Source of the DNA: an uncultured Chloroflexia bacterium
GTDB lineage: Bacteria; Chloroflexota; Chloroflexia; QHBQ01; JAICKM01
Direction of reading: 5' to 3'
DNA length: 64,000 nucleotides
NCBI GenBank assembly: GCA_963784695.1
Contig: CAWARZ010000005.1
Span: 60,955-124,954 of the forward strand
Positions 7,453 to 57,372 of the stretch are shown here, one piece after another. Every line of letters starts with the position of its first letter. Position 1 is the first letter of the stretch. Both the position numbers and the translations under genes were made by a program. A model generated the notes under the pieces. The model did not search any database and had not been told where the DNA came from. It saw only the letters and a program-made list of their open reading frames with translations.

Positions 7453-12276
<4,824 letters not shown>

Positions 12277-19431: not shown

Positions 19432-19460
19432 TTGACAGGACCCGCCCCCTTTGGTATAAT
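19432..19460 (+). promoter_or_regulatory. sigma70 promoter of tRNA-Gln
   Basis: TTGACA (19432-19437), 17-nt spacer, TATAAT (19455-19460). Confidence 0.85.
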
Positions 19461-19471
19461 TCACCTCGCGA

Positions 19472-19545
19472 TGGGGAGTCGTCTAACGGTAGGACAGCTG
19501 ACTCTGGATCAGTAAGTTGGGGTTCGAATCCCTGCTCCCCAGCCA
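19472..19545 (+). tRNA. tRNA-Gln (anticodon CTG)
   Basis: TGGGGAG/CTCCCCA acceptor stem, anticodon arm CTGA-CTCTGGA-TCAG, T-loop GGTTCGAATCC, encoded CCA end. Confidence 0.96.
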
Positions 19546-19575
19546 CGAAAATAGCTCATGCAAAGCACGGCGTTA

Positions 19576-19603
19576 GCCCCGGCCACCTCTGGCCGGGGCT
19601 TTT
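19576..19603 (+). terminator. Intrinsic terminator after tRNA
   Basis: AGCCCCGGCCA-CCTC-TGGCCGGGGCT followed by TTT. Confidence 0.8.
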
Positions 19604-20041: not shown

Positions 20042-20236
20042 GTGCGACGGGGCCGTGGCTGCAGCTCGGTACCGCCGCCCCACCACCCGGCGTTACCCCC
20101 GATCCCGGCGCCGACTATCCGACCAGCGTTCCGCGCGCCACTCGAGTCGTGGTATACTAGAACAGCGCCGAAGGGGGATTGACCAGCGTGCGTCCGGCTA
20201 ACGCTCGGCCGGCCGCCGCGCCAATAGGACCCGCGT

Positions 20237-23008
20237 ATGGCCACGCACCCCACGGGTACCGTCACGTTCCTATTCACCGACGTCGAGGCGAGCACCCAGC
20301 GCTGGGAGCAGCACCCGGCCTGGATGGCCGCCGCCCACGCCCGCCACGAGGCCATCCTGCGCGCCGCCATCGCCGCCTACGGGGGCTGGGCCTACAAGCA
20401 GATCGGCGACGCCTTCCAGGCCGCCTTCCAGACCGCCCCCGCCGCGCTCGCCGCCGCTGTCGCCGCCCAGCAGGCCCTTGCCGTCGAGCCCTGGGGCGAG
20501 CCCGGCCCCCTGACTGTGCGCATGGCCCTGCACACCGGCACCGTCGAGGAGCGGGCGGACGACTACGTGGGGCCGCTGCTCAACCGCGTGGCGCGGCTGC
20601 ATGAGTGCAGGGCACGGCGGCCAAATCCTGCTGACGGCGACGACATACGAGCTCGTGCGCGATCACCTGCCGGACGGGGTGGCGCTGCGGGACCTGGGCG
20701 AGCGGCGGCTGAAGGACCTCACGCGGCCCGAGCACGTCTGGCAGGTGGCCGCCGACGGGCTGCCTGCGGAGTTCCCGCCGCTGAAGACCCTGGACGCCCG
20801 GCCGAACAACCTGCCCGCCCAGCCCAACGCCTTCATCGGCCGCGAAGCCCAGATCGCCGACGTGCTGGCGCTGCTGCGCCGCCCCGATGTGCGGCTGCTG
20901 ACGCTGACCGGGCCCGGCGGCACGGGCAAGACGCGCCTGGCGCTGCAGGTGGCGGCCGACCTGCTCGACGACTTCGCCGACGGCGTCTGGTTCGTCGACC
21001 TGGCGCCGCTGAGCGACCCAACGCTCGTGATCCCCACGATCGCCCAGGTGCTCGGCGTGAAGGAGCAAGGCGCGCGCCCCCTGCGCGACACGCTCAGCGA
21101 CTATCTGCGCGGCAAGCAGCTGCTGCTCGTGCTCGACAACTTCGAGCAAGTAGTGGAGGCGGCCCCCGACGTCGCCGCCCTGCTGGCCGCCTGCCCGCAG
21201 CTGGCCGTGCTGGTGACGAGCCGCATCGCGCTCCGCCTGCGCGGCGAGCACGAGTACGCGGTGCCGCCCCTGGCTCTGCCGGACCCGGCACATCTGCCGC
21301 CACCCGAGGGGCTCAGCCAGTACGAGTCCGTCCGCCTCTTCATCGACCGGGCGGTCGCCGTCAAGGCCGACTTCGCGGTGACCAACGCCAACGCGCCCGC
21401 CGTCGCGGAGATCTGCGCCCGCCTCGACGGCTTGCCCCTGGCGATCGAGCTGGCCGCCGCGCGCATCCGGCTCTTGCCGCCCGAGGCGCTGCTCGCGCGG
21501 CTCGGGGAGCGGCTCAAGCTGCTGACCGGCGGGCCGCGGGACCTGCCCGCCCGCCAGCAGACGCTCCGGGCCGCCATCGGCTGGAGCTACGATCTGCTGG
21601 ATCCAGGGGGAACAACAGTTGTTCCGCCACATGGCGGTCTTCCCGGGGGGTGCCACGCTGGCGGCGCAGGAGGTGATCTGCAACTTCGACGGCCACTGCG
21701 GGTCGACGTGTTTGACGGGGTGGAGATGCTGCTGAGCAACAGCCTGCTCCAGCAGCGGAGCGGCCCCGACGGCAGCCCCGCCTCTGGATGCTGGAGACGA
21801 TCCAGGAGTTTGCGCGGGAGAAGTTGGTGGCGAGTGGCGAAGCGGACGAGCTGAGGCGGCGGCACCTCGCCTACTTCCTCGCCCTTGCCGAGGAGTCGAC
21901 CGTGCCGCCGGTCGACACCCGGCTCGCGGCCTGGCCCGCCATGATCGAGGAAGAGCGGGACAACCTGCGGGCGGCCTGGGCGTGGGCGATGCGCGCGGCC
22001 GGCCCCGGGGACGACCAGGCCTTGCGGCTAACCGCGGCTTTGGCCGATTTCTGGCTAATGGGCTCCCGTATGCAAGAGGGGCGGCAGCGGCTGGAGGCGG
22101 CTCTGTCCCGGTCGGAGACCAGGGGCACGCCGCGCGCGGCCGCGCTCCTGAGCCTCGCCCAGCTCACGTTTTACACCGCGGATCCCCGCGACGCCCAACG
22201 CTTGGCTGAAGAGAGCCTGGCCCTGTCGCGGGAGCTAGGCGATACCCGAGCAATCGCGGGCAGTTTGGTAGCGTTGGCATCATTCGCTGCGCAGTTTGGC
22301 AACTATGACGGTGCGCTTGCCATGGCAGAGGAAGCCGTGATGCGGGCGCGGGAATCGGGGGACAGGCGGAGTATCGCGAACAGCGTTGGCCTTGTTGCCT
22401 GGATTGCTAGACTTCAGGGTGATTACGCGCAGGCTCAAGTTTTGTGCGAGGAAGCACTCGCCTTGTGGCGCTCGATTGGCCACCAGATGGGCACGGCTGA
22501 CGCGCTGGAGGAGCTGGGCGAACTGGCGCGCCTCCGAGGCGACTACGCAGGCGCCGGCGACTGGCTCGACCAGGCTCTGGCAGTTTCGCGAAAGGTTGGG
22601 TATACCCATGTAACCTACGTCGCTCTTTATAGTCTCGGGTGCGTGCATCTGCAACAGGGTAGGGTGGCACGAGCAGCAGCGTGTGCGCGGGAAGCCTTGA
22701 TGCTGAACAAGGAGGCCCGGTTCGGCGGCGCTACAGCAGCCCTCGCGTTCGCCCTAGCTGGCGGCGTGGCCGTTGCCGCAGGTGCATCGGCCAGAGGGGT
22801 GCGGCTGTTGGCGATCGCGCATGCGCTGCTAGAGGCAAACAATGAGGTCCCCGACCCGCTCAACCGCGCGACCTACGATCGCGACGTCGCGGCGAGCAAA
22901 GAAGCGCTGAGCGGATCAGAGTGGGCGGAGGCCTGGGCCGCCGGACGCGGTCTCAGCCTGGAAGAGGCCCTGCGATACGCGCTGGAGGAGACTGTCCCCG
23001 ATGCCTGA
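20237..23008 (+). CDS. Class III nucleotide cyclase - STAND/NB-ARC NTPase - TPR protein, copy 1 (frameshifted)
   Basis: FTDVEAST, KQIGDAF, RMALHTG, NRVARL; GPGGTGKT, LLVLDNFEQ, LDGLPLAIELAAAR, MLETIQE; TPR repeats. Confidence 0.9.
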
Positions 23009-26008
23009 CCACCCCACCGGCACCGTCACCTTCCTGTTCACCGACGTCGAGGCGAGCACCCAGCGCTGGGAGCAGCACCGCGCCTGGATGGAGCAGGCGC
23101 ACGCCCGCCACGAGGCGATCCTGCGCGCGGCCATCGCCGCCCAGGGCGGCTGGGCCTACAAACAGATCGGCGATGCCTTCCAGGCCGCCTTCCAGACGGC
23201 GCCCGCCGCACTCACCGCTGCCGTCGCCGCCCAACGCGCCCTGGCCGCCGAGCCCTGGGGGATCCGGGCCCGCTCACCGTGCGCATGGGCCTGCACACCG
23301 GCACCGCCGCGGAGCGGGCGGACGACTACGTCGGCCCCCTGCTCAACCGCGTAGCGCGGCTGATGAGTGCGGGACACGGCGGCCAGATCCTGCTGACGGC
23401 GACGACATACGAGCTGGTGCGCGACCATCTGGCTGACGGGGTGGCGCTGCGGGATCTGGGCGAGCGGCGGCTGAAAGACCTGACGAGGCCGGAGCATGTC
23501 TGGCAGGTGGTCGCCGACGGCTTGCCCGCCGACTTCCCGCCGCTGAAGACGCTCGACGCGCGGCCGAACAACCTGCCCGCCCAGCCGAACGCCTTCATCG
23601 GCCGCGAGCCGCAGATCGCCGAGGCCCTGGCCCTGCTGCGCCGCCCCGACGTGCGCCTGCTGACGCTGACCGGTCCGGGTGGCACCGGCAAGACGCGCCT
23701 CGCCCTGCAGGTGGCGGCGGATCTCCTCGACGACTTCGCCGACGGGGTCTGGTTCGTGGATCTCGCGCCACTGACCGACCCCATGCTCGTCGATCCCCAC
23801 GATCGCCCAGGTGCTCGGCGTGAAGGAGCAGGGCGTCCGCCCCCTGCGCGACACGCTCGGCGACTATCTGCGCGGCAAGCAGCTGCTGCTCGTGCTCGAT
23901 AACTTCGAGCAGGTGGTCAATGCGGCCGCGGAGGTGAGCGCGCTGCTCGCGGCGGCGCCGGGCCTGAAGCGTGCTGGGCACGAGCCGGGTGCCGCTGCAC
24001 CTGCGGGGCGAGCAGCAGTACGCGGTGCCTCCGCTCGCGCTGCCCGACCCGGCGCATCTGCCGCCGCCCGAGCGGCTCAGCCAGTACGAGTCCGTCCGCC
24101 TCTTCATCGATCGGGCCGCCGCGGTCCAAGCCGATTTCGCGGTGACCAACCGCAACGCGCCTGCCGTTGCGGAGCTCTGCGCCCGCCTCGACGGCTTGCC
24201 CCTGGCCATCGAGCTGGCCGCCGCGCGCATCCGGATGCTCCCGCCGGAGCAGTTGCTTGGCCGGCTCAGCCAGCGGCTCACGCTGCTCACGAGCGGCGCC
24301 CGCGACCTCCCAGCGCGCCAGCAGACGCTGCGCGCGGCCATCGACTGGAGCTACGATCTGCTGACCAGGGGGGAGCAGCAGTTGTTCCGGCGGATGGCCG
24401 TCTTCCAGGGTGGGCGCTCGCTGGAAGCCTTGGAGGCCGTCTGCAATTATGATGGGCAGCTGCAGATCGACGTCTTCGCCGGGGTGGAGACGCTGCTGAG
24501 CAGCAGCCTGCTGCAGCAGCGGACCAGCGCCGACGGGGGGGCGCGCTTCTGGATGCTGGAGACGATCCACGAGTACGCCCGCGAGAAGCTCACGACGAGT
24601 GGGGAACGGGATGCGTTGGCGGGCGCCCACCTCGGCTACTTCCGCAGCCTGGCCGAAGCCGGAGGGCCCAGCCTGGATGAGGCACCGGCTGCGTGGTGGC
24701 TTGTTCGGTTCGAATCGGAGAGGGACAACTTGCGGGCGGCGCTGACGTGGGCGCAGCAGCACGATGGCGAATCGGGACTCCGCGTGGCAGCCGCACTTGG
24801 GGGAGTGTGGGGGAATCTAGGCGAGGCCCGGGAGGGACGTGCCTGGCTAGCGACGGCTCTTGCCCACCCCGCGACACAGGCGCCGAGTCCGGCTCGCGGC
24901 ACGGCGCTCGTCCACGCCAGCAACCTCGCATTTATGGCGGCCGACTATGAGGCGAGTTTCACCCACGCCGCGGAAGGGGCGGGGACCGCCCGTGCGCTTG
25001 GAGAGGCGGCAGGCGAAGCCAACGGGCTATTCATGATGGGCGTCAGTCGCTGCATGCTGGGTGACTCCGCTCAGGGCGTGCAGTTGCTGCGGCAGGCGGA
25101 AACTCTGTACCGCCGGCTAGCGAATCCGATGGGCTCTCCCAATTGCTTGTCAACCTAGGGTGGTTCTTGGCAGATACGGGGGATACAAGAGGTGCCAACG
25201 ACGCACTCGAAGAGGCCCTCATGCTGGCCCGTGGAAGCGGGGAAGAGGTCGCCGTCGCCTTTGTCCTGCTAAACCGTGGCGGCATCGCAACGCCGACAGG
25301 TAATTACGCGCGCGCATGCGAGGATCTGGAAGAGGCGCTCACCCTCTACCGTCGAAATGGCTTCAGCTACCGAGTCGCCACAGTGCTCGTAAACCTAGGC
25401 GAGACGATCGCTTGCCTGGGCGAGTACGCCCGCGCTGAAGAGCTGCTCCGCGAGGCGAACGCCTTGTTCGAGCCTGCTGGTCTACCCGATGAAAGCGCCG
25501 AGACGGAGGTCCACCTTGCGCGAATCGCCCGTTGGCGTGGCGATTCCGACCGCGCCCGCACGCTTGCGGACCGTTCGCTTGGATGGCTATCTGGAGCATA
25601 GCTCCGTTGGTCATGTTACCCTGGTGAAGTCACGAGCGCGGGCGCATGGCTCTCGCGTCGGGTGAGCTGGTCGCCGCCCGTACCTGGCTTCGGCAGAGCC
25701 TGCTCCCCGCCCAGGCCAGCGGGCGCCGGCCCGCAATGGCTAGCGCCCTGGCCGCCCTGGCCGAGGTAAGCGCGGCCGCAGGCCGGCCCGACCGCGCCGC
25801 GCGTCTCGGCGGCGCGGCCGCAGCCCAGCTCCTGGCCGTAGCGCAGCGGCTGCCGCCCGTCGACGACGCCGCCTTCCACGCCGCACTGGACGCCGCCCGC
25901 GCCGCCCTCGGCGAGGCGGCTTTCACCGGCGCCTGGGCCGCCGGCCAGGCCCTGTCGCTCGACGCCGCGGTGGCCCTCGCCCTGGAGGAGACCGTCCCCG
26001 ATGCCTGA
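23001..26008 (+). CDS. Cyclase - STAND - TPR protein, copy 2 (frameshifted)
   Basis: Same motifs as copy 1. Start overlaps the copy-1 stop (ATGCCTGA). TPR region is divergent. Confidence 0.88.
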
Positions 26009-28802
26009 CCACCCGAGCGGCACGATCACCTTCCTCTTCACCGACGTGCAGGGCAGCACCGGCCTCTGGGAGCATCAGCGCGCCTGGATGGAGCAGGCGC
26101 ACGCCCGCCACGAGGCAATCCTCCGTGCCGCCATCGCCGCCCAGGGCGGCTGGGCCTACAAGCAGATCGGCGACGCCTTCCAGGCCGCCTTCGCCACCGC
26201 GGACGCCGCCCTGGCCGCCGCCGTGGCCGCCCAGCGCGCCCTCGCCGCCGAGCCCTGGGGCGAGCCGGGGCCGCTCACCGTGCGCATGGCCTTGCACACC
26301 GGCACCGCTGAGGAAAGGGCGGACGATTACGTCGGCCCCCTGCTCAACCGCGTCGCGCGGCTGCTGAACGCCGGGCATGGCGGGCAGATTCTGCTGACCG
26401 GGGTGACGGCCGCCCTCGTGCGCGACGCCCTGCCGCCGGACCTCGCCCTCGAGGACTGCGGCGCGCGGCGGCTCAAGGACCTGATCGTGCCTGAGCACGT
26501 CTGGCAGGTGACCGGCGCCGGGCTGCCGGACGGCTTCCCGCCACTGCGCACGCTCGACGCCCAGCCCAACAACCTGCCGCCCCAGCCCACCGCCTTCATC
26601 GGCCGCGAGGTGCAGCTGGCCGCGGTCGACGGCCTGCTGCGCCGGAGCGACGTGCGGCTCGTCACCCTCACCGGCCCCGGCGGCACCGGCAAAACCCGCC
26701 TCGCCCTGCAGGCGGCGGCCGACCTGCTCGACGCCTTCCCCCACGGCTGCTGGCTCGTCGAGCTCGCCGCGCTGGCCGACTCGGCCCCGCGTGCCCGAAA
26801 CCATAGCCGGCATCTTCGGGCTGCGGTCGGACGACGGCCAGACCTTCGTCGACGCCCTGGAGAGCTACCTGCGCGCCCGCCGCCTGTTGTTGGTGCTCGA
26901 CAACTGCGAGCAGGTGCTGCCGGTGGCCGCTCTGGTCGACCGGCTGTTGCGCGCCGCGCCCGGGCTGAAAGTGCTGGCCACCAGCCGCGCTCCGCTCCAC
27001 CTCTACGGCGAGATCGAGTACGCCGTGCCCCCGCTGGCCGTGCCCGCGCGCGACGCCACGGGCCGCTTCAGCGCCGGGCCCGCCGGCCCGGCCGGCCCCG
27101 ACCTGGCGGCGGCGCTGAGCCAGTACGAGGCGGTGCGCCTCTTCATCGCGCGCGCCGTCGCCGTCAAGGCCGGCTTCGCCGTGACGAATGCCACCGCCCC
27201 GGCCGTCGCCGAGAATCTGCGTGCGGCTCGACGGGCTGCCGCTGGCCATCGAGCTCGCCGCCGCGCGGGTCAAGCTCTTCCCGCCGCAGGCCCTGCTCGC
27301 GCGGCTCGACCGCCGGCTGGCCGTGCTCACCGGCGGGGCGGGCAACCTGCCGGCGCGCCAGCAGACACTGCGCGCGGCCATCGCCTGGAGCTACGACCTG
27401 CTCGACCCCGCGCAACAACAGCTCTTCCGCCGCATTGCGGTCTTTCAGGGAGGCGCCACCCTGGAGGCGATGCGGCGGTCGGCGCGGCCGGCGACGTGCT
27501 CGACGGGGTCATGGCGCTGGTCGACCACAGCCTGCTGCTGCAGCGGGAGGGGCGCGACGATGCGCCGCGGTTCTGGATGCTGGAGACGATCCATGAGTAT
27601 GCGCGCGAGCAACTGGCGGCCAGCGGAGAGGCGGCGGCGCTTGGCGATGCGCACCTGACCTACTTCACCGCGCTGGCTGAGGAGGCCGGGGTCGGCCTGA
27701 AGGGGCATGAGCAGCTAGGTTGGCTCGCGCGGTTGGACGCCGACCGGGATAATGTGCGGGCGGCGCTGGCGTGGGCGCAGGAGCGCGCGGCCGGCCGCGC
27801 CCCAGGCGGCCGCGCTGGGGCTACACCTCATGGCCGGGCTCTACTTGTTTTGGTTTAGCCGGTCCGCGTTCGTGGAGGCCGGGGCCATCGCGGAGGCGCT
27901 GCTGGCCGTGGGCGCGGGGGCGCCGCCGGAGGCGCGCGCCGCGGCTCACAACGTGGCCGCTAACGCGGCGGCCTGGACCGGCAACTATCGGGCGGCGCGC
28001 CGCCACTACGAGGCCGGACTCGAGCTGTGCACGCAAGCTGGCGATCGCGTAGGGAGGGCCTGGATGCAGGGAGGTGTGGCTTCAGCCCTATGGGAGCTGG
28101 GGATGTCCCCCACGCATTCGCGCTCAACAAGGCGGCCGTGTCAGACTTGCTGGCGGCCGACGCGCGGTGGGAAGCGGGCTGCGCGCTGGTTAACCTTGCG
28201 TGGATGGAGCTGCAGCAGGCGGGCGACGCAAGCGCGCAGCAGCACCTCACGCACGCATTAGCATTATTTCAGGCACTCGGCGACCGCACCGCGTTGGCCA
28301 TGGCCCTTTGCTACCTCGGCGCACTCCACCTACGAGGCGGGGACTTGCTGGCGGCGCGCGGGCATTTCGCTCATGCGGTCAGCCTCTACAGGGAACTCGG
28401 CGACTCGTTCGCAGAACGCCAACGCGCTCCGCGGCCTCGGGTCGTCGCGCTGGCGGAGGGGGACTACCAGCGCGCGCAACCCCTGGTGCCGGGAGAGCAC
28501 CCGCTCTACCGGGACCAGCGATTGAAGCGCGCTCTGGTTGGGAACCTTGTTGCCGCCGGAGCCACCGCCGTGGGGCTGGGGCGGCACGCCTTGGGCACCC
28601 GCCTGCTGGCGCGGCCGACCGCGCGCTGCGCGGCCTGGCGGCCACTCACGACGGGGGCGAACACGAGGCCCAGGCGCACGCCGTTGCCCCGGCCCGGGCC
28701 GCCCTGGGCGAGGAGGCTTTCGCGCGCGCGTGGGCCGCAGGCCAGACCCTGTCGCTCGACGCCGCGGTCGCCCTCGCGCTGGAGGAGACTGCCGATGCCT
28801 AA
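26001..28802 (+). CDS. Cyclase - STAND - TPR protein, copy 3 (frameshifted)
   Basis: Same motifs (FTDVQGST, GPGGTGKT, LDNCEQ). Ends ALEETADA*. Confidence 0.87.
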
Positions 28803-28855
28803 CCGCCCGACCGGCACGATACCTTCCTGTTCACGTACGTGGAGGCCCGCACCGC
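28795..28855 (+). pseudogene. Stub of a fourth cyclase-STAND gene
   Basis: Same junction (GGAGGAGACTGCCGATGCCTAA), then MPNRPTGTI.FLFTYVEART, after which homology stops. Confidence 0.7.
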
Positions 28856-28885: not shown

Positions 28886-29516
28886 ATGGACACCCCAAAG
28901 CAGTACGTCGGCACAGCACGCACGGCGGCCGCCGGCCCGCCGCCCGACTACCGCGCCTACTTCGACCTGGAGACCTACCTCTTCGGCACCGTCACTCAGC
29001 GGTTTCGGGATTGGGGCTATCTGGCGGCGCGCGACTTCTTCTGCATCGTCATCTGGAAGGCGAACCGCGCGAAGTCGAAGGTGGCGCGGACGCTGCTGAA
29101 GCGCGGCAAGGCCGACCTGGAGACCGCCGTGTACCGGCTGACCACGGGCTTGGCGGCGTTGCCGGCCGGCGAGGCCCGGCTGCGCGACCTGATTCGACAG
29201 GTGGGGTCTGCGCCTGCCCATGGCCTCGGCCATCCTGACGGTCCTCTATCCCGAGGAGTTCACGGTCTACGACGTCCGGGTCTGTGCCATCCTCGCGACG
29301 CCCAGGTCGGCGACTTCCGCGGCCTCGCCGAGATGACGCAGGTTCGCGTCTCTGGCCGCGCTACCAGGCCTTCCGCGCGGCGGTCGCGGCTGCGGCGCCC
29401 CCGGCCTGAGCCTGCGCGACAAGGACCGCTTCCTCTGGGGCCGCGTTCGCCGAGCAGCTGGATGCCACATCGGCAGGCTTTCGGAAGCAAGCCGGTGCCA
29501 CGGCGTCGGCGAGTAA
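28886..29516 (+). CDS. HhH-superfamily DNA glycosylase-like protein (frameshifted, end approximate)
   Basis: FFCIVIWKANR, then across frames WGLRLPMASAILTVLYPEEFTVYDVRVC and LSLRDKDRFLWG. Confidence 0.55.
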
Positions 29517-29895
29517 GCGTCTCCGGGACCGAATCGGATCGCCGGGCGCTGACCATTCGGCGGGCCCGGGCAGCCCGCCGGTGGGGACGAGTCTGCCTCT
29601 CATACACCTTCCGAGAGTTGGAGTCCCTTCACACGCGTGCAGGGTATCAGGGGCGAGGAGGGGCGGCAGGGCGGCCGGGGGGTGCATCCGGCCGGGGTCT
29701 TGCGGCGGCAGTTGTCGCGCGGCGGAGCGGCCCTCCTACAGCCGAGATCGGCTGCCCCGCGGCCGCCACGCCCTCGTCACAGCCCCGTCGGTGGGCTTCG
29801 TCTTTGTTGCCCGCAGGCTTAGGCTGCCGGGCCACCCCGCCGCGCGGTCGGCTTGGACAGCTCCTGCATAATGCTTATTGGGAGCCCGCCCCTCC

Positions 29896-32449: not shown

Positions 32450-32926
32450 GGGATCCTCCTCCGGGCCGCGGCTGCGCGGCGCGGGTCCACTATACCACCC
32501 CGCGGGCGCGGGGCTCAAGGCGGGGGCGGGTCGTGTCCCCGGCCTTGAGGTGCACGGCAAAAGACGCCCTGCAAGACTCAGCACGACGCCCCGCGAGACA
32601 CGACTTCCAGGAGCGTGTCCGTCGCGTCAGGCCTCACCGAGTCGGTCTAGCACGATCCTGAAACACGGATGGTGTTCTTTGCGTGGAGAGCATCAGCCGG
32701 GCGCCATGAGCGTCAGCCGGCGGTCGCCGGCAGGACGCGCTCCGCGTGGAGGGCGAGCGTGACTGTGTTGTCCGGGTACCACCGGTTCGAGCCTGCTGTT
32801 GAGTGATTAAGTCGCCCTTCAATTGGGCATTGTCCGGCGTCGCAGAGTGTGCTATTATGCGGGAGCCCGAGTTCGCGTGCAGACAGCCTTAATCACCACT
32901 GGTGTTCCCGGGAGGGGCGCCGCCAT

Positions 32927-35900
32927 ATGCCAGCGCTCGACCATCCCATCTCTGCGACGACGCTCAGCCACTATGTGCGTTTGGAACGGTGCGAGCGCTA
33001 CCTGCGATTGACTCTGCGTCGGGACGAGTTGCAGGATCTCCTGCGCCGATTTCAATCGCTGGACGTCGAGCAGCAAGCCTTATCTCCACTGCTGCGAGCA
33101 GCAGGTCAGCGCTTCGAAGGCCAGGTCGTCGAGGGCCTAGGCGGCCAGGTTCACGCGCTAGACAATCAGGATGCCGCAGCCACTACTGCTGCGCTTGTGG
33201 CCCTCCCGTCGGGCGAGACCTGTTACCTGACACAGGCGCCGGTCGCGGGCGAAATCGGCGGCTGGCCCTGTGTCGGTCGGGCCGATATTATCCGCGCCAC
33301 ACGCACCCGGGGCGGCGGGCTCGACCTGCTTGTCACCGATCTGAAGGCGTCGGCCCAGGACCACGTCGAGTATTTCCTCCAGGTCGCCTTCTATTGCCGG
33401 CTCCTGCGGAGCATGTTGGCATCAGCAAAGGAGCGCCTGGATCGGTGCCAGGGCGCCATCCTCAAAGTAGGGGATGGTCAGGCACTGCCCGCGCTCGAGG
33501 ATCCGGCCAACCTGTTCGATCTGGCGCCTTATGACCTGACGCTAGACCATCTGCTGGCTGGGGACGATGCCGATATAGCCCGTGTGCTGCGCGCGCCTTT
33601 AGTTGATTTGGCGTATAGCCTGAGCTACAAGTGCGACGCGTGCGTGTTCAACGAGCTCTGCATGGTCGAAAAGCGCGGATCGCCAGGATGTCGCCCTCAT
33701 ACCATACGTGCAGCCTGCCGAGGTGCGGGCGTTGCGCCAGGCAGGCGTGCGGACCGTCCGCGACGTCGCTAGCTTGAAGGAGCTACCCGGCCCAACCGGT
33801 TGGAACACGCTCTTCCGTGCTGCGGCAGGGAAGGCAGACGTAGTTGCCGCCCTGGCCGCCCGTCCCCCGGTTGGGCCCCAACTGGATCGCCTCGTGCAGC
33901 GCGCCCGCGCGCTCTTGCAGCGTTTCGAGCCTGAGACCACAGCCTACCCGTATCTGCTTGACGGCGCGATCAGCACATTGCCCGCCGATGAAACAAACCC
34001 GGATCTCAGTCAAGATCTTCCTGGATGCCCAGCACGACTACGTACAGAACCGTATCTACCTGACCGGCGCCTTAATTCGGGGGCCACGCGCCACGATTTC
34101 GATCGTCCATATGACGCCAGGGCCGCCGACCGACGAGGACGAGGAAGCGCTCCTGCTTGCCACGCTCAACGACATCCTCGCGGCGATCCCGCGTGCCGCA
34201 CAGGATTCGGAGCGGATGCCGCTACATCTGTATGTGTTCGACGGCTACGAGCAAAAGGTCTGGCTGGATGCGTTGGAGCGGCACCGGGATGCCCTGTGGA
34301 CGGTTCCGGCCTTCTTTGAGCTCCTGACGGCGAGTTCCGCGTTCGAAGAGGGCATGTTCGCTGTGCTGGCAACCGAAGTGCGTGACCGTCGGAACCTCGG
34401 GATCACGTGCCCGAATCTCTACAACGTCGCGGCCCGCCTCGGTTTTCGCTGGCGTACCGATCGCGACAACTTCCGCGCGGTGTTTCGCCTGCGCGTCTTT
34501 GACGACAGCGTGCGCCGTCCGGATGGAGTCTGGATTGAGAAGGCCAGCCGCTTCCACTCACATATTCCCCTCGAGTACGCCTACGGCGCCTGAGACAACT
34601 CCCCGACGACCGAAGTGATCAGGAAGCGATCGCGGCGTATCGGCGTAGCGTGCAAGAAGCCATCATGCGCTTCCAGGAGCATCGTCTCGGTGGGCTGGCG
34701 CATATCGAGAGTGCGCTGGGGACAAAGAACAAGTCGCTGACGAAATCTGCCGCGCGCTTGGCCAACTTGGAAGCTGCCGGATCAGCTACGACCGGCCTCG
34801 CCCGGGCACTCGAGGAGTTCCTGGCTCTCGAGCACCATGTGGCACTTCAGGAACGCCTGGGCCTCTTCGCGCTCCCCATCGAGCGCCGCGCGCAGACCGG
34901 CCGCGCCCTCTTGCTTGTCTGTACAGCCGTTCGGGACGTGGGCAATAGGAAAGTCGCATGCTTCCGGATCGACTACACCGGCCTAGGCCTGATGCGCACG
35001 CAGCCAACCAGATCCTGCGTATCAAGGAAGGCGACTGGATGGTTCTGAATCCCCACGATGGGCGCACGCCGTGGAAGATCCTGCGCGGGCGGGTTGCGAT
35101 TGTCCAGCGCCTCGGCGATGAGGAGATCGACCTGGAGCTCCTGGATATTACCAGCTACCGCAGCCAGTTCAAGTATCCCCACGATATCAAGCTGCTGCCG
35201 AATGCGGGGGAACAATGGAGCCTCGACGAAATGGCGGACGACCTCAACTTCGACAAGTACATGGAAGCGATTCGTCCGCCGACACGAATATCCTCTACCA
35301 GGCGCTGACCGCCCCGCCAGTGGCCAGCAGCGCGGGACCCATTGCAGGCCGCGATCAGCAGTTCTTGCAGGCCGTGCAGGACCTCGAAAGACCACACGCA
35401 CCGACAACGCGGCAGCAGCAGATCATCGCCGGGCATCGGACGACATCGGTCCTGGCAATCCAGGGCCCGCCGGGCACTGGGAAGACGGCGACGCTGGGCT
35501 GGGCGGTGCTCGCGCGGCTCTTCGCGCGTGATGAGCGCCCGCTCCGGGTGGCCGTCTGCGCGCGTACGCACAAGGCGACGAACCTCGTCCTCGAAAGCAT
35601 CGCGCGCTGCCTCCACCGCCTGCACGCCACCCGCGTGGGCCGGGCACCGGGTGACGTCGAGGTCTACAAGGTTACGGCCGAGGCCGATGAAGATCTACCC
35701 GCGCATGTGCGTCCCCTTGCCTACTATCGTGACTTCGCCGCCTTGGGCCGCGCACTCACGGCACCCGGCGCATCGTCATCGGCGCCACCCGGGCGGGCTA
35801 TACTGGATGGTGAAAGCGCCCGAGGGCAAGAAGATCGACTGGACCAACAAGTTGTTCGACTTTCTGATCAATCGACGAAGCGAGCCAGATTAGCCTGCCC

Positions 35901-36772
35901 GAGGCGGTGCTTGCCGGGGCTTTCCTGAAGCCGAGTGGGCAGGTGCTGATCGTAGGCGACCACCGCCAGCTGGCCCCATCCTTGCCCACCGTTGGACGCA
36001 GGAACGGAAGCGCAGCGCGACCACGTACCGGCCGTACCAGTCGGTATTCGAGGCGGTCGTAAGTCAGCACTTCCCCGATGGAGGCGCTCAATAAGAGTTT
36101 TAGGCTGCACCAGGTACGGCGCTTCCCTTGCCCAGCATATCTACAACCGCGACGGATCCCATTCTACTCCCGTCGCCACCAGGTACTCCCGCCAAGCCCG
36201 CCCGCGTGGATCCCTTCGTTGCCGCGGTGCTCCGGGCTGATTACCCTGTAGTTGTCGTGGAGCATAGTGAGGCAGAGTCGCAGCAGCAGTTCCGATCGAG
36301 GTCGCGCTGGCCAAACCGGTGATCGCCGCTGCGAACGTCTCTGGGGTCTGGATGGCGCACGTGGCTTGGGAGTAGTAGTGCCGCACCGCGCGCAGAAGGC
36401 CGCCCTCCGCGCGCAGTTCCCAGGCCTGGCCGCGGCCGACGCGATGGATACCGTGGAGCGTTACCAGGGCGGTGAACGCGACGTCATCTCAGTCTCGGCG
36501 ACGGCCTCGGATCCTGCCTACGTGCTTGCCGAGGCGGAGTTCCTCCTGAATATAAATCGCCTCAACGTAGCCATCTCACGGCCGCGGCTAAAGTCCATTG
36601 TCCTGGCATCGCAGACCGTCTTCCGCATGATTGTCGACGATCCCCTGGTCTTCGAGCACGCGGTGTTGTGGAAATTCTGCGTTACCAGCATGCAGCAAAG
36701 TTGCTCTGGGACGGCGCCCAGGAGGGTTACGCGGTGCGCGTGTTCGGCAGGCACTGCGGGACTTCCGATTGA
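32927..36772 (+). CDS. PD-(D/E)XK (Fe-S, Cas4/AddB-type) nuclease fused to SF1 helicase (Dna2/TM0106-like); multiple frameshifts
   Basis: CERYL..GRADII..DLKAS..QVAFY..KCDACVFNELC, then QGPPGTGKT, IDEASQ, GDHRQLAP, TVERYQGGERD and RLNVAISR. Confidence 0.82.
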
Positions 36773-36852
36773 GGAACCTGTCGTCGCGCTACAGCAGCCG
36801 GAAAGCGATTCCCCGCGCCGGAACACAGCCCGCGGGAGAGGAGGAAAGAAGC

Positions 36853-38054
36853 GTGGTGACCTCAGGCGTGATCCGGGCGGTCGCGACTGCCGACAATCAT
36901 CTGAGCAGGTTCTACGATCGCATGTCCCCGGCGAAGCTGCAGCGGCGGCGCCACTACCTGCGCCACTCCTCGACGGCCGTGGTCAAGTACGCGCTCGATT
37001 GGCCCGCGGATATCCTCTTCATCGCGGGCGATCTCTTCTGCACGGAACCGGACCCGCGTAACGTGGATCTTGCGTGTTGTGGCCCACTGCCTATGTGGCT
37101 GTGAGAGCAGGGGGTGAGGGTGTACGCGGTGTCCGGGAACCATGCAGGACGCTATGGCACAGCAGCGAGCAGGGCGGATACACCCCCCCGAGGACAAATT
37201 ACTTGCTGGGCCGCCGGATCCTGTTTGATAGCACCACCGAGATCCTGACGGACGTGGTGGAGAGGACCGCGGGCATGCGCGTGGCGATTGGCGGGCTGGG
37301 GCCCGACCCGGCGGCGCCTCCGGGCACCGACCCGCTATCCGATATTCGTTGGCCGATTCCGCCCGGCGACGTCGACGTCTGGAGTTCCTGTTGCTGCACG
37401 GGCCCATCGAGGGCCACGCGCCGGATTTCGGGGGCGCGCTCATTCGGCTGGAGACGCTGGGCGCCCTGGCCGGTCCGGATGTCTCCATCGCGGGCGACGT
37501 GCATCGGGGCGCCGTGCGCCACATCGGGGAGCGCACGCTCATTATCCCGGGTGCCACCGAGCGGCTGACCTTCGGCGAGGACGCCACGCAATCCGGGTTC
37601 TTCGCGTTGGAGTTGGGCCCGGGCGGGCTACGGGCGCAACAGCGCATTCACCTGGATGCGCAGCCACGCGCTGAGGTGGTGGTCCTGCTGGGCGGACTGG
37701 GATTCCCTTGATGCACTCGGTGGCGCCGATCGCCCGCGGTACGTCCCGTCTGTACTTCGGAGACTCTGCTCAAAGTGCGCCTTGAAGGCGTTGTTACCTG
37801 CGACCAATGACGTGAGCTTGCCCTGTGCCCGCCATTTGAGATTCTCCACCCCGATGTGTTTCAACTCACGGTCGATACCAGCGGCCTGCTGCTCGAGGAC
37901 GAGCGCCGTCAAATTGCCGATCGCGGAATCCGCGTATCGCAGCAGGACGCGATCCTGGCATACGTCGCGGATTACGGCGGGAGCGAATAGCGGTGCTGCG
38001 GAAGCCCAAGAAGCGATCGCCGAAGCAACCCAGCGCATCCTCAGCCGCTATTAG
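36853..38054 (+). CDS. SbcD/Mre11-like metallophosphoesterase nuclease (frameshifted)
   Basis: ATADNHL, IAGDLF, SGNH, LLHG, AGDVH and PGATERLTFGE motifs. Confidence 0.8.
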
Positions 38055-50700: not shown

Positions 50701-53700
50701 TTACTGCGCCTGCCGCGCCGCCTGCTTCTCGGCGATCGGGATGTGCCGGTCGTTCTCCCGGGCGCTGCCGTCGGGGTTCGTGCCGCGGTCCTTGTTCCAG
50801 TTGATCGTGAACCGGCTGCGCAGGATGCCCGCCGTGACGAAGGGGCGGATGTTCAGCCGCACCCCGTCGTTCAGGTCGGGCTCCCAGCCGATCGGCTGCT
50901 GCGGCCAGCGGCTTCCAGCGCACGTAGATGTCGTACGGCGGCTCGCCGTCGCGGATGGCGATCAGCTGTGCTGCAGGCCCAGCGCGGCCACCAGCCGCCC
51001 GTCCGCGCCGGCCACGCCCTGCTCGGCGTCGGCCCGCTGGCGCGCGATCCAGTCGCCCAGGTAGGTGTAGATCAGGCGGTTGAGGCGGGCGCGGTCCAGC
51101 GTGTGGTAGTTGACCAGCGCGGAGAAGCCGTCCCGGTTGCCGTCCCAGACGTGCCAGATGAAGGGGCGGTTGTGGAACAGGCGCGCAGTGCTGGGCGAAG
51201 AAGCCGTCGCGCAGCCAGACGTCCAGCCCCTTGCCCGCGTAGCCGGCCTCGGCGAGCAGGCTTTCCTGCAGGGCCGGCGACCAGGCGTCGCCGTAGGCGG
51301 CGGCCAGCAGGGCGCGCAGGCGCTCCGCCGCGGGCGCCTCCCGGGCCACGGCGGGCAGGCAGACGATGCCGTCCCCGTCGGCCAGCCGGTCGAGGGCGTC
51401 CGGCTCCTGCTCGGGCCAGCGGTAGCCGAGCAGCCGGGCCACGGCCACCTGCAGCGGCGCGGTCGAGTCGTCGGGGCGGCCCTTGAAGAGCCACTGGGTC
51501 GGGTCGTTGGAGTAGGGTTCGGGCAGCGGTCCGGCGGCATCGGCGACCGCTTGCCAGTAGGTCCAGATCGAAGGGAACTTTCACAAGCGTTGCGTTGGTG
51601 ACGTTCATCTTCTTGTCAATCCGACGAACGGCTTCGTTGAACTGCGGCGACTGGCAGAAGGCCCAGATGGCAGGGAGATAGTCAGGATTTTTCGGCAGAA
51701 TGACCGCCACATTCGTTGTCGAAGATCCTCCTGTGTAAAGAGCGCAGGCAAGCTCACCCATCTGGCTGATACGGCACGCCGGGTTTGCCCCAGGCCATCC
51801 CCCCTGCAACGAACAGCCCACGCTGCTTTCCCTAGATCATGCAAGATCCCCGACCCGTTCTGCCAGTAGACGATCTGCTCATGCCCGCCATACGGCTGCT
51901 CCTCTGCGACGGTGCTCTGTGTAATAATTCCCAATCGTAAGGCATCGATTAGCCGCTTCCCAGAAGCACCTGATAAACCGAGGTAATCGCTTCGTCCGAA
52001 GCCATGTAACACCATGCGCATAACCTCGAGGAGTAACGCAGTTGCAACAGCTTCTGCAGTCGAAACTCTGGCGTCAGGATCTGTCAAAGAGCAGTTCAGC
52101 TTATCTGCGGTGCCAATTGTCGGTGACGTAGACGTCAACAGCCGTCATTTCGCTCTTCATGATCGCGTCTCCGTACGTCAATACCTGCACAAGTGATGGC
52201 TGGTCTGGGAGGCAATTCGATCAGCAATGAGCAAGACTTTGACGACCTCCCCACAGTGATTGTTTCGAAGGCCCGGGACCAAGTCAACGACAAGAAGTTC
52301 CATGTTTGCTCGCGCAGCAATCTCTGCGCAAGCTCGGAATACTGACCCAGAAACAGCCAGTTCTGCGGTGTAACAATAGCGTAGGATCCCCCCGGGCCTG
52401 TGAAGCGACTGACAGCGATCCAAGAAGGCGGTCGCCAGATCCTTTCGCATCGAGGATGATGCGTCGTCGCAATATCATCTGAGCACGTCTGATCTTGCTT
52501 ACCGCGCGCCAAGATATGGCACATTGGTCGCCACCAGCGTGTACTTCCGCGCCAGCAGCTGTGCCGCCCTCGCCACGCCCTCTGCCGCTCGCCCGAGGAC
52601 AGCCGCGACCGGTCGTCCGCGCACGCTCCTTCGGCTAGCGCCCGCTCCAGCAGCGGCGCAACCTCCTCGTAGTCGGCGCTGAACATGCGCTCGCTCATCG
52701 GCACGTGCGCCGGGTCGATCAGGCTGCCCAGGGTCGGGGCTTGCTGGAACAGGTTGTACAGCCGCTCCAGCGCGGCTGCAGGCGCACATCGTCGCCGGCC
52801 AGCTTCAGCCAGTCCGCCCACTGCCCGGCACCGGGATGCCGGAGCAGGCGATGTTGGGCACCGGCAGGGGACGGTAGCCGCCGGTCTTCCAGGCCGCCAG
52901 GCCAGGGCGAAGGCGGCGATCTGGGTGCAGCGGGGGTCGATCTCCAGCCCGAACAGGTTGTCGCGCAGCACGGCATCGCCCGCCTCGGCCGCGCCCAGCC
53001 CCTCCTCTTCCATCCGCATCCGGCGCAGCATGTCGAAGGCGGCGACCAGGAAGTGGCCCGGAGCCGCAGCAGGGGTCCATGACCGTGACCTCGGCGGCCG
53101 CGTCCGGCCAGCCGGGGAAGGTGCCCGCCGCCGGGCGTGCCGTCGTCGCGGTAGCGCAGGTAGGTGAATCTTGACGCAGCGGGCTGTCGGGATGGCGGGC
53201 GGCCCACCAGGCGCCGAGGGAGTTCTCCAGCAGGAACGTGACCATGTAGTCCTCGGTGAACAGCTGGGTCACCGGCGGTAGGTCGCCGCCGCCGATCTTG
53301 CGCTCGCTGGCGTTGACCTCGTCCTTCTTCTTGCTCTGCCAGAACTGGTAGACCCAGCCCAGGGCGTCGTCGGCCGTGAAGACGCGGGCGGCAGGTCGGC
53401 CAGCATGCGTTCCAGGGCGTTGCGGCCTTCGGGCGCGAAGCGCACCTGCACGGCCGGGTCGTCGCGGCGGAAGATGCCGGGCAGCATGCGCCTCGGCGTA
53501 GCGGGCGGCCAGCATCCCAGGCGTCGGCTGCGCCCTCCTCGGGCGCCAGCTCGGCGCACTCCTCCAGCGTGACGGCGCACGCCGCCGGGTGCATCAGCAG
53601 GTCGTTCTCGGCCAGGAAGCGGGCGAAGAGCATGCGGTGCCACTGCTCGTAGGCGATCTCTTCGACGAGCGGATCGAAGCCCTGCGTCCTGGTCGCCGTC

Positions 53701-53892
53701 GCCCAGCTGGCGGGCGCGGGCGCGCAGGGCGTTGCGCAGCCGCCGCTGCTCCTCGTCGAGCGTCGCGAAGGGCGCGGGCCGGTCGACCGCCAGCGCCAGG
53801 AGGGCGGCGCGCGCCGCATCCTCCGCCGCGTCGCGCGCCCCGACCACCGCCTTTTCCAGGGCGGCGCGGTCGTCCGTCGTCAGAACCGTCAT
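50701..53892 (-). CDS. pglX: BREX adenine methyltransferase PglX/BrxX (frameshifted)
   Basis: AYEQWHRMLFARFL, TQLFTEDYMV, DPCCGSG, FGLEIDP, ATNVPY, HNRPFIWHVWDG and DLNDGVRLNIRPF. Confidence 0.92.
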
Positions 53893-53910
53893 CCCGTGCG
53901 TCTCTCCCGT

Positions 53911-56900
53911 CTAGAGCATGACCGGCCGGCCGGCCCGGATCTGTTCCATAATGGCTTCCTGGAGGCGCGCGAGGTACGCGGTCACCTCGGCCTCCGTGCG
54001 CAGGGTCGCGCGCGGCACCGGCACCCGCACCGCCTTCCGGGTTGAATCCGCTTGCCGGCCTCCTGGCGGGCGCGGGCGGCTCGCTCCGGCAAGGCCGCGC
54101 TGCGGTTCTCCCAGCTGCTCAGCGGCGTCGCCTGCAGCGCGTCCAGTAGCTGCTCGTCGGTGCCCAGCTGCAGCGGCGGCACCGCCCCCAGCCCCGCCTC
54201 GGTCAGGATGCTTTGCCGATCGGCGGGCGCCAGCTGTTGCCACTCGGCCAGCGCTTCCAGGCCGGCCTGCTCGCGCCGGGTGTCTGCTTCCAGGCGCACC
54301 CGCGCGTCCTGCAGCGCCTGGCGCAGCGCGGCGGCCAGCTCGGTCGTGAGCGGCGGCACCGGGTCCGGCTCGGCCAGCAGGCTGCGCTGCGCGCGGATCG
54401 CCTCGACCTGCGGCCGCACCCGCGCGGCCGCCTCCGTGCCCTGCGCGTAGCGGAGGAGCTGTTCCAGGCCCTTCCAACGCGGCAGGCGCGCCGCAATCTC
54501 GGCTTTGTCCTTGCTCCACTCCTGGAACTGCCTCAGCAGCTCCTCGCGGGCGTCATAGGCGTCGCGCATCTGCGCGTTGCCGCTCGCCGCGCGCAGGCTG
54601 TCGACCAGCGCGCTGCTCGGCCGGGCCGGCAGCGGCGGCTCGCCGCCCGCGGTCGCGGCCAGGTCGGCCAGGCGCTCGAGCACGCGCTGGAGTGCTTCGC
54701 CTTCCTCGCCGGGCTTGCAGGGCAGGCCCACGTCGGCGCTCAGCTTGCGGATGGCCAGGCGCTGCGTCCCCGAGATGGTCACGCCCTCGCTGACGAAGTC
54801 GGTCACGCCAATCTGGCCCTGGGCCAGGCCCTTGACCGGGACCGGCTGCCCGTTGCGGCTCGCGCGCACGAAGCCGCCCGCCAGCAGGGCGAGCAGCAGG
54901 CCGTCGACGGCGTCCTGCGGCCAGCCGAAGGGCGCGCCGGTGAACTGCTTGCGCACCTCGAGCCCGCGCTTGCCGCCCCCGCCGACGAAGTCGCGGACCC
55001 GGATGGCGGGCGGATACTTCTCGACGTCGCCCTGATAGCCGACCGCCGTGAGCGCATCGGTCGCCCCTTCGCCGGCCCGGCGCGCCACCTTCTCCCAGCC
55101 GGCCAGGTCGGCGAGCCCGAAGTTCGGGAAGAGGCGCGCGAGCGCGGCCTCGACCGCCGTCCGCACCGCGGCCGCGAAGGGGAACTCTGCACCTCGTTGC
55201 CCCCGCCCTGGAAGACCCGCGCCTGCGCGACGATCGTCCCGACGAGGCTCTTCACCCGCTCGGCCTCCGTCCGCGCGCGCGACTCCATGGCCGCGCGGGC
55301 ATTCTCGCCTTCGGGCGTGGCCGGGCGGGCGCGCGTCTGCACCGTCTCGGTCGCGGCCGCCGCCGCGGCGAGCGCGTCCTTGAGCGGCTCGGCGTCGCGG
55401 CGCGGCAGGAAGACGAAGACGATCGGGCTTTCCGGCCCGGCCTCCTGCGCATCCTCGCGCGCCGTCCGCTCGGAGACGGCCCACTCGTCGCGGATCCAGA
55501 CCGGGATGGCGCCCGTGTCGGCCTTCGGCTGGTCGGCGCCGAAGTAGAGGTCGAAGCGGCGCGCGGTCCTGGTGACGCCCTGCGTGATCGTCATCCCCTT
55601 GAGCGCCTCGCGGACGGCCGCCTGGATGGCGGTCGCGCGGTCGCCGGCAATGCGGGCGTCGTCGGCGGCGATGCGCCCGCGCCGGGTCCGATATTCGCTC
55701 TCCCACTCGGCGCTCTCGCGCGTCTGCAGCCGGTAGACGTCGTCGATGAGCATCAGCCGCCCCTCGCCGACCAGCGCCTGCAGCGCGGCGGGGATGCGCT
55801 GGCGCAACGCCGTGCTGCCCGCGGTCAGATCCTCGACCAGCAGGTCGGCCAGGGTGTCCGCCTTGGCCTGAATGCCAAGCGCGGCCGGGCCGGTGCTCGC
55901 CTCGAGCTTGCTGATCAGGAAGATGGCGGCGCAGAGCCGGGCGCGCAGCCGGCCGTCCGCCCCGTCCTTCGCCAGGTTCTCGATCAGCGTATAGGTGTCG
56001 CGCAGCAGGACCGCGCTCTCCAGCATGTCCCCCTTGAGCTGATCGTAGATGAAATCGCCCGGCACGACGCTGCCTAGCGGCTGGTCCACCACCTCGGCGG
56101 CCGCGTCGTGCACGATGCGCAGCTGCGTGCGCAGCTGTGCGGCGGTGCCGGGCACGTCGATCGCGCGCAACAGGGCTTCCCAGAAGCGCCGGCGCGCCGG
56201 CAGCAACGGATAATCCGCCACCAGGTCGCGCTCATCCGCGCTGCTCGGCGCGATCTTCGTGCCGGCCAGCTGGCGATCGATCTCCCCGCTGGCGCTCTCC
56301 AGCACCCGTTTCAGCTCGGGCACGCGGTCGGGCCGCTTCTGCAGCACCACTTTGCGCACCACCCGCTCGACGTCGGAATCCGAGAGCATCACGCGCACCG
56401 TGAACCGGCCCTGCAGCTTCTGCAGCTGGGGCGTGCCCTGCAGGGCCGACTGGCCGGTGGCGACGAACAGCAGGCGGCTGCCGAATCGCGAGCAGCAGGC
56501 CTCGACCACGTCCTGCACGGGCAGGGTGCGTCCGGCGTCCTCGTCGATGAACTGCTGCAGCTCGTCGAGCACGAGCAGCGTGCAGGGCAGCTTGCCGGGC
56601 GTGGACGATTGCTGCCGCAGCACCTCGTCCATCTGGGCCAGCATCTCCTCGTCCGAGATGTCGTCGCGGGTTGGGAACTGCTCCCTCAAGAGCGTGCGCA
56701 CGCCGCGGGCGTCGGCCGCGAAGTCGGATCCGCCGCCAGCAAACTGCCCGCCAGTACCGGCGAGACGTACATGTTGTTCAGCTCGCGCGCCCACTCCCTG
56801 CCTTCCGACTCGACCTTACCGCGGACCGCGTCGTAGTAGCCCTGGGCCTTCAGCCAGAGCACGAAGCGGGCGGGCGCGTATTGCTCGGGCAACCCGGCGC

Positions 56901-57372
56901 TGCGAAAGAGGATGGCGAGCAGGGCCAGGCGCACGCTCTTGCCGCCCCCGGCGGCCAGCTTGCCGGCCGCCGACCAGAGGCCGCCCTCGCGCTTACCGGC
57001 CGTGGTCAGCTCGCGCAGCAGGTCTTCCACATCGCTCGGCAGGCGCGCCAGCCCGCGCGCCGTCGCGCCGTCGGGGAAGGCCACGTCCCGCCAGAGGCAC
57101 TCGAGCACGCGGACGAAATGCGACTTGCCGCTGCCGTAGAAGCCGCTAACCCACGCGGCCGGCTGTTCGGCCTTGTCCAGGTTGGACAGGTAGGTGTTCA
57201 GCACGCGATCGAGCCCGCGCTGGTACTCGCCCTCGCAGACGAAGTTCTCCAGCTCGTAGCGGAGCACGTCCCATTGCTGTTCGGTACTCGGCTCCTCCAC
57301 TTTCGTGACGCCGCCGTTCGGGATGGGCCGGGACGCCGGATCGACCAGGAAGACATCGCGGTTCTTCAGCAT
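53911..57372 (-). CDS. brxC: BREX P-loop ATPase BrxC (frameshifted)
   Basis: FVCEGEY, WVSGFYGSGKSH, LVLDELQQF, YPLLP and PFGWPQD. Confidence 0.93.

Follow-up and report, generated by a model that had tools for sequence, protein, structure and literature searches.

Organization of the array

We analyzed a window of 64,000 nucleotides (G000:C5:60955-124954, where G000 is the source genome; positions are those of the window unless a contig is named), which revealed three genes for class III cyclase-STAND (NB-ARC type)-TPR proteins and a stub of a fourth, with successive genes overlapping by 8 nt. The array and its upstream features are as follows.

19472..19545 (+): tRNA-Gln(CTG), upstream of the array
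20143..20236 (+): 5' leader of copy 1, with an extended -10-like box (TGGTATACT)
20237..23008 (+): copy 1, 923 codons, running cyclase, STAND NTPase, arm, TPR and C-terminal cap (cyclase to ~20805; NTPase and winged helix to ~21808; TPR ~22030-22850; then the cap)
22983..23008 (+): junction 1, with GGAGGAG from the LEE codons, a 10-nt spacer and ATGCCTGA; the copy 2 start overlaps the copy 1 stop by 8 nt
23001..26008 (+): copy 2, 1,001 codons, architecture as in copy 1, TPR longer by about 70 aa
25983..26008 (+): junction 2, same form as junction 1 (GGAGGAG, 10-nt spacer, ATGCCTGA)
26001..28802 (+): copy 3, 933 codons, core 89% identical to the paralog at G000:C2:180565
28780..28802 (+): junction 3, ALEETADA, with GGAGGAG from the LEE codons, a 7-nt spacer and ATGCCTAA
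28795..28863 (+): stub of a fourth copy, about 22 degenerate codons of a cyclase start

At all three junctions the upstream stop occupies nt 6-8 of the next copy's start, and the overlap sequence is ATGCCTGA at two of them and ATGCCTAA at one. A previous sequence-only reading of this DNA had described three full genes and a stub chained by a reused junction; the chain and the stub stand, with the coordinates and 8-nt overlaps given above, whereas the genes are not full open reading frames but carry 16 frameshifts. That reading had also let the last codons (ALEETVPDA) supply both ribosome-binding site and overlapping start, which applies to junctions 1 and 2, while junction 3 reads ALEETADA, so that its observation of a real array is partly confirmed. 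The fourth-copy stub may be the scar of an array contraction.

The leader of copy 1 is common to the paralog at G000:C2:175588 and a stub at G000:C8:119317, and within the array this leader of stand-alone paralogs is present at copy 1 only. A scan with the sigma-70 consensus made no call at its -10-like box, and the leader is likely the array's only promoter. The tRNA-Gln gene has its own promoter-like site (19432-19460) and a terminator-like hairpin (19575-19600), and no tRNA-Gln was found at the four nucleotidase-gene loci in congeners. In G004 a family member adjoins the same nucleotidase-amidohydrolase pair, but on its opposite side.

Domain composition and predicted output

Pfam searches of the array copies revealed Guanylate_cyc (PF00211, over cut-off), NB-ARC/AAA_16 and TPR_12/TPR_MalT, with no LuxR match and with proteins that terminate at the cap helix. 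The motifs FTD, YKQIGD, DDYVG and NRVAR occur in all three copies and, aligned to the Ma1120 cyclase, each copy has the complete class III set of two metal Asp, transition-state Asn and Arg, and the substrate pair K, D for ATP. Both the intact catalytic residues and the missing LuxR HTH had been read correctly from the sequence beforehand. Among 81 full-length relatives (16 of 97 cyclase-bearing ORFs being left out as cut, broken or short), the catalytic D, D, D, N and R are kept in 75-78, while the substrate Lys position holds K in 46, R in 23 and Q in 10; the array copies all have K. Because of this K..D pair the product points to cAMP, and the complete ATP-type catalytic set predicts a cAMP-type output.

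The NTPase part has the Walker A/B motifs, GxP helical domain, winged helix and C-terminal repeats of STAND NB-ARC/AP-ATPases, and GKT, LDN and GLPLA are kept in 79-81 of the 81 relatives. The MHD (HD) latch itself appears to be missing, in that the position presumably equivalent to it reads M-L-E, without His, in most of the 81. An AlphaFold model of the intact paralog at G000:C2:175588 (pLDDT 88) matched the STAND-TPR crystal structure 6MFV as its top fold, along with Ma1120, Apaf-1 and plant NB-ARC/NLR cores; its cyclase part reached a TM-target of about 0.9 against Ma1120, which was also matched by sequence.

Frameshifts in the array

A frame-aware, profile-guided read-through placed 4, 6 and 6 frameshifts in copies 1, 2 and 3, met no in-frame stop along 2,857 codons and returned 0 shifts for the intact control paralog.

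Copy 1 (+): near 20603, 21609, 21695 and 21775; the TPR part is one open frame
Copy 2 (+): near 23263, 23795, 23973, 25130, 25584 and 25648
Copy 3 (+): near 26790, 27214, 27474, 27799, 28098 and 28607, plus a probable compensating pair at ~28420-28500

A codon-model scan of the genome put the rate on each of the 8 contigs at 0.32-0.65 shifts per kb of coding sequence, with a mean of 2.7 per 8.6-kb window (675 windows; 99th percentile 9). Over the array interval it made 15 calls, one of them a gene junction, and the density of array frameshifts is about 6 times the genome mean in the single assembly available. Windows on the nearby BREX island held 23 and 13 shifts per 8.6 kb in the same scan. 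Among hand-placed break sites, 6 of 18 lie near runs of at least 4 bases, against a background of 9%. Breaks without nonsense codons, together with some homopolymer excess, fit long-read consensus error, and we consider the array frameshifts to be probably such errors in variable DNA. Alternatively, the breaks could be genuine, and the array a pseudogenised remnant or a silent reservoir of modules on which paralogs at other loci draw. This would agree with 16 breaks in 8.6 kb where the genome averages far fewer, with stubs at the array and two other loci, with the 18 of 23 other STAND loci that have no called shift in the tested 1.8 kb, and with the genuine frameshifts that parts of PMC4452763 describe for related mclx genes in some strains. 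We regard decay as unlikely, given that no in-frame stop interrupts the copies, that shifts occur on every contig with the BREX island worse than the array, that break sites favor base runs, and that the core dN/dS between copies 1 and 2 is 0.11-0.21.

Conserved cores joined to divergent sensors

Copies 1 and 2 share 92% of amino acids in the cyclase, 83% in the NTPase and 86% over the whole core, and only about 30-33% in the TPR part. In 150-nt windows along the first 1.0 kb they are 85-91% identical at the nucleotide level, save one window at 73%, so that the near identity over long stretches previously claimed for them was an overstatement. Copy 3 and the paralog at C2:180565 are similarly 88% (cyclase) and 90% (NTPase) identical, with 35% in the TPR. 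The array TPRs are poorly alignable with one another (24-33% amino acid identity) and poorer in GC, as had been noted by eye: GC at fourfold sites is 120/172 (0.70) in the TPR of copy 1 vs 321/336 in its core, 169/240 (0.70) vs 315/331 in copy 2, and 145/179 (0.81) vs 345/355 in copy 3 (cores 0.95-0.97; p from 7e-10 to 3e-16). Elsewhere the drop averages 0.04 in the 81 relatives, is at most 0.01 in 8 full-length paralogs of the congener G003, and is not seen in two other G000 paralogs. A low-GC TPR as a family-wide trait was ruled out by these 81 relatives and G003; as far as the sequences go, it is specific to the clade of the array.

Core and sensor are likewise discordant in this clade only. 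Of 3,570 pairs compared, 13 have a core identity of at least 0.76; the 8 from relatives have TPR identities of 0.66-0.94, against 0.27-0.35 for the 4 pairs inside the array's clade and 0.52 for another tandem pair of G000. Max-chi tests placed breakpoints in 10 of 10 triplets, also inside the core (0/500 permutations each, a significance that is overstated because sites are treated as independent). Trees of the separate regions disagree: in the NTPase tree the partner of copy 3 is C2:180565 (support 100), whereas in the sensor tree C2:180565 joins C2:175588 (0.96), and both group with the copy 3 sensor (support 1.0). The paralog at C2:175588 itself combines a cyclase 95% identical to that of copy 1 with a sensor like that of copy 3. 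The most notable result is that, by these measurements, orphan low-GC sensors have been re-paired with homogenized cores in this lineage specifically. Recombination has likely kept the enzyme-and-switch halves alike, and the TPR sensor halves were likely replaced.

For the TPRs of copies 2 and 3 the comparison covered a set of 93 sequences, in which the sensors of copies 1 and 2 found their best matches (33-36%) in other genomes. A search for a donor of the copy 1 TPR gave best identities of at most 40% in 39 other genomes and at most 44% among the best 150 of 1.84 billion representatives. The low-GC sensors may have come from import of lower-GC DNA or from fast change in place, which cannot be told apart since no donor was found, and the GC of the core is so close to saturation that it confounds the synonymous step where core and TPR meet. 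The identity and GC steps expected from sliding-window comparison of the copies are present, whereas the positive selection looked for alongside them was not seen: TPR dN/dS is 0.09-0.31 in all 7 measurable close pairs, which come from relatives, the G000 pairs being saturated. These values, together with an intact array in G031 that is old and whose cores are not homogenized apart from one 94% pair, argue against hypervariability as a family trait. A diversity-generating retroelement was also sought, and G000 (90% complete) has no RVT_1 match.

Family spread and recurrence of the coupling

G000 has about 26 STAND-TPR loci, 10 of them with a cyclase, and a cyclase-NTPase query matched 40 of 41 genomes searched, some via the NTPase alone (the 41 include G000 and four unpublished genomes, G006, G011, G019 and G034). 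Homologue labels point to Chloroflexota, with many annotated as 'predicted ATPase/class 3 adenylate cyclase'. The relatives studied here come solely from the top-scoring matches of this query; among 97 genes we counted nine adjacent family pairs with a gap of at most 200 nt, and a tandem pair in G018 overlaps by 1 nt. A second cyclase-STAND type (zinc ribbon-cyclase-AAA) lies directly 3' of a family gene in two genomes (L119:8145, L120:5067).

Of 151 genomes of the class, 2 matched a degenerate form of the junction pattern, every time at an array of this kind, and the reversed control had 0 matches. The second array, in G031, is intact.

L077:1-8306 (G031:C55) and L092:1-4588 (C129): G031 array, at least 5 copies if the contigs join; two copies are 94% identical

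Its C55 part encodes proteins of 890, 881 and 881 aa and a cut copy, with two more coupled copies on C129, and the junctions have the same 8-nt overlap (ALEETRDE, ALENTNSE and ALEDSNND; ALEDSSID on the second contig). As the G031 copies do not group with the G000 copies on the core tree, overlap coupling likely arose more than once, if this tree is a guide. The junction would seem to need no special invention and to be cheap to make, because an xLE-type motif occurs within the C-terminal 45 residues of 52 of 81 proteins, accompanied by an SD-like sequence in 19 of the 52, and because the overlapping stop is already there in 25 of 89 family starts, for 19 of which no upstream copy coupled by 8 nt was found. 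Junction and stub recur at G000:C2:183397 and on metagenome contig L167, where the junction leads into a cyclase stub. The sister cluster (L076, G000:C2:170148-183406) consists of an XRE-STAND-TPR gene, an intact cyclase-STAND-TPR gene, an OppA-like gene (named by eye) and a copy-3-like gene that ends in the same junction and a 7-codon stub. Matches to the exact junction at 28 loci in genome contigs, none with a cyclase or NTPase match, were taken as chance.

An assembly artefact, with reads of paralogs or strains merged into an array or into mosaic copies, would be compatible with the single, error-rich assembly, with every window protein found being a one-member cluster, and with the exact junction being absent from the metagenome contigs searched. 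We hold it to be highly improbable, since core nucleotide differences between copies are 10-30%, the TPRs are unique, and the same overlap exists with intact frames in G031 and also in L167. The arrangement is real and recurrent, in a common family. The earlier expectation of an expandable array whose conserved flanks allow sensor exchange thus finds agreement in the mosaic tests, the discordant region trees, the stubs and the independent, intact G031 array. In the literature searched there was no report of coupled arrays or sensor exchange in the cyclase-STAND-TPR family; three large supplements of PMC13581612, which fell outside the part of that source covered, may classify the clade.

Neighborhood and possible defensive role

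Downstream of the array, 4 kb away and beyond a beta-mannosidase gene, begins a defense block, whose BREX locus is ~14 kb from the array.

32849-42724: lower-GC block with a PD-(D/E)XK nuclease-superfamily-1 helicase (weak MkoA/DpdJ matches) and an AAA_23 SbcC-like gene; frameshifted
42837-58554 (-): BREX-type locus with brxA, brxB, brxC, pglX, a GmrSD-like gene, pglZ and brxL; heavily frameshifted

Between the parts of its pglZ lies a Schlafen/AlbA piece. Evaluating neighbors at 74 loci in relatives, we found 20 PADLOC matches at 1e-10 among the 258 nearest ORFs; generic domains account for 19 of these (methyltransferase, ABC, HtrA, subtilase, radical SAM, Uma2, RT, TPR, other cyclases) and one, PycTM-like, is specific and effector-like. 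Pfam showed metabolic, translation and transport genes around the family, and 0 of 255 ORFs at these loci (3 of the 258 being outside the Pfam scan) had a cNMP-binding domain. There was no enrichment near defense genes across the 74 loci and 258 ORFs, for which there is no control set, with the window itself as the exception. The PycTM-like membrane protein gene (L036:1535-2248, G023:C66) immediately precedes a tandem pair, and the catalytic start is degenerate in the first cyclase of that pair. PADLOC 2023, a library without the newer Avs types, gave no Avs/AVAST model for the four array fragments and the intact paralog; the array proteins had no PycC match either, and no effector is adjacent in the window.

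The array copies could be anti-phage or non-self pattern receptors, each TPR sensing a phage protein and cAMP triggering a defensive or suicidal response via an unlinked reader. Orphan, swapped sensors on a constant core are the pattern expected under conflict; the helicase-nuclease, SbcCD-like and BREX island at 32.8-58.6 kb is the only hint near the array, and G023 is the one relative with a PycTM-like gene upstream. Parts of 10.1101/2020.01.06.895854 describe NB-ARC/TPR proteins and a guanylate cyclase domain in NLR-type settings of multicellular bacteria, and this preprint and PMC7159879, in the parts consulted, count cyclases and AP-ATPases among the components of conflict systems predicted for such bacteria, which keeps an immune reading alive. 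We nevertheless give it a low probability, considering the generic nature of nearly all PADLOC neighbors, the missing AVAST model, the TPR dN/dS values, the beta-mannosidase gene that separates array and island, and the absence of the word 'cyclase' from the main text and 7 supplements of the STAND defense survey PMC13581612. The portion of that survey consulted has defense and non-defense STAND clades interspersed. The proposal of an NLR-like immune receptor of CBASS/Pycsar type is accordingly not borne out by the neighbors or by selection on the TPRs, and the interpretation of the sequence-only reading as a whole is partly supported.

Comparison with known systems

The array copies have the canonical K..D substrate pair, unlike Rv0386, which reportedly selects its substrate by another mode. 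Judged by domain content, the Mclx proteins (Rv0386, Rv1358, Rv2488c) are the closest known, being soluble with an N-terminal class III cyclase and an AAA/NB-ARC NTPase, and with TPRs in Rv0386 (parts of PMC4452763 and 10.1101/2024.03.06.583649); the array proteins are not members, because they lack the C-terminal LuxR HTH, and they differ as well in forming a coupled tandem with swapped TPRs. Many database matches annotated as 'predicted ATPase/class 3 adenylate cyclase' have the same domain set (PF00211, NB-ARC/AAA, TPR), and the same NTPase-TPR body in such matches also bears XRE, SARP/BTAD, LuxR, kinase or GGDEF outputs. We take this annotation to be COG3903/COG2114. Its members are mostly single genes, whereas the array has the 8-nt LE(E/D) junction found in 2 of 151 genomes.

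With Avs/AVAST and bNACHT anti-phage STANDs the array proteins share the effector-STAND-TPR layout, and Pycsar uses class III cyclase chemistry as is predicted here; unlike Avs/AVAST and Pycsar, they have no PADLOC Avs or PycC match and no linked effector, and their relatives have housekeeping genes as neighbors. In plant R-gene and fungal NLR clusters, NB-ARC receptors in tandem have diversified through unequal crossing-over and conversion. The array resembles them as a tandem of NB-ARC receptors and departs from them as a bacterial operon with translational coupling and with no positive selection detected. An NB-ARC-type switch with a C-terminal TPR sensor is shared with AfsR (parts of 10.64898/2026.09.02.748808), MalT and PH0952-type STANDs, in line with 6MFV as top fold match, while the output is a cyclase instead of DNA binding and the HD motif is not kept. 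By analogy, the array proteins are predicted to work like AfsR or PH0952-type STAND-TPR switches.

A model for the array

Our preferred reading, which we rate at slightly better than even, is that the array is a recombination-shuffled, ligand-gated and likely cAMP-producing sensor repertoire. In STAND proteins an ADP-bound NTPase is off, ligand brings ATP exchange and oligomerization, and class III cyclases are active as dimers. Here, one promoter before copy 1 would drive all copies, with ribosomes re-initiating at each 8-nt overlap. Arm and TPR would hold the ADP-bound NTPase off until ligand binding at the TPR leads to ATP exchange and oligomerization of the NTPase, which would pair the cyclase domains into active dimers that make the predicted cAMP. 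The cAMP could be read in trans, for instance by the CRP-like protein of G000; the genome encodes seven cNMP-binding proteins, one of them CRP-like with HTH_Crp_2, so a reader in trans exists. A protein with cNMP-binding and patatin domains (L168:4114-6258, G000:C2) is another possible cAMP reader. Finally, the ~500 nt of high identity that span cap, junction and cyclase start would allow modules to be gained, lost and re-paired through unequal crossing-over and gene conversion.

A bolder extension, which we think rather improbable, would make the array a bacterial counterpart of a plant R-gene cluster, in which the cap-junction-cyclase repeat is a recombination cassette that captures and reshuffles foreign TPRs, and receptors that are translated together and whose cores can stand in for one another, perhaps as mixed oligomers, report many non-self signals through a single cAMP alarm. 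The order to which the bacterium belongs is rich in cyclase-STAND-TPR proteins, and the measurements at this locus indicate that in one lineage the sensor half has been re-paired with a constant, predicted cAMP-type output half. The locus also offers natural chimeras and intact paralogs for finding ligands by a simple cAMP readout, with the intact G031 array as the best target for experiments. Should the ligands be molecules of phages or neighboring cells, this would be a recombining receptor repertoire in bacteria; otherwise it is an expansion of a known signaling family.

Other features of the window

Right after the stub, a small gene (28886-29336, +) has no Pfam match and Atlas leads to DUF7207 (0.85) and OGG-like (0.78). 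Upstream, a SecA-like protein of 1,607 aa (7453-12276, -; named from motifs by eye) is encoded in one open frame and has a long extra N-terminal region and C-terminal insertions. An intergenic repeat at 29650-29850, 60-170 nt long, has dozens of copies of 70-90% identity across all contigs.
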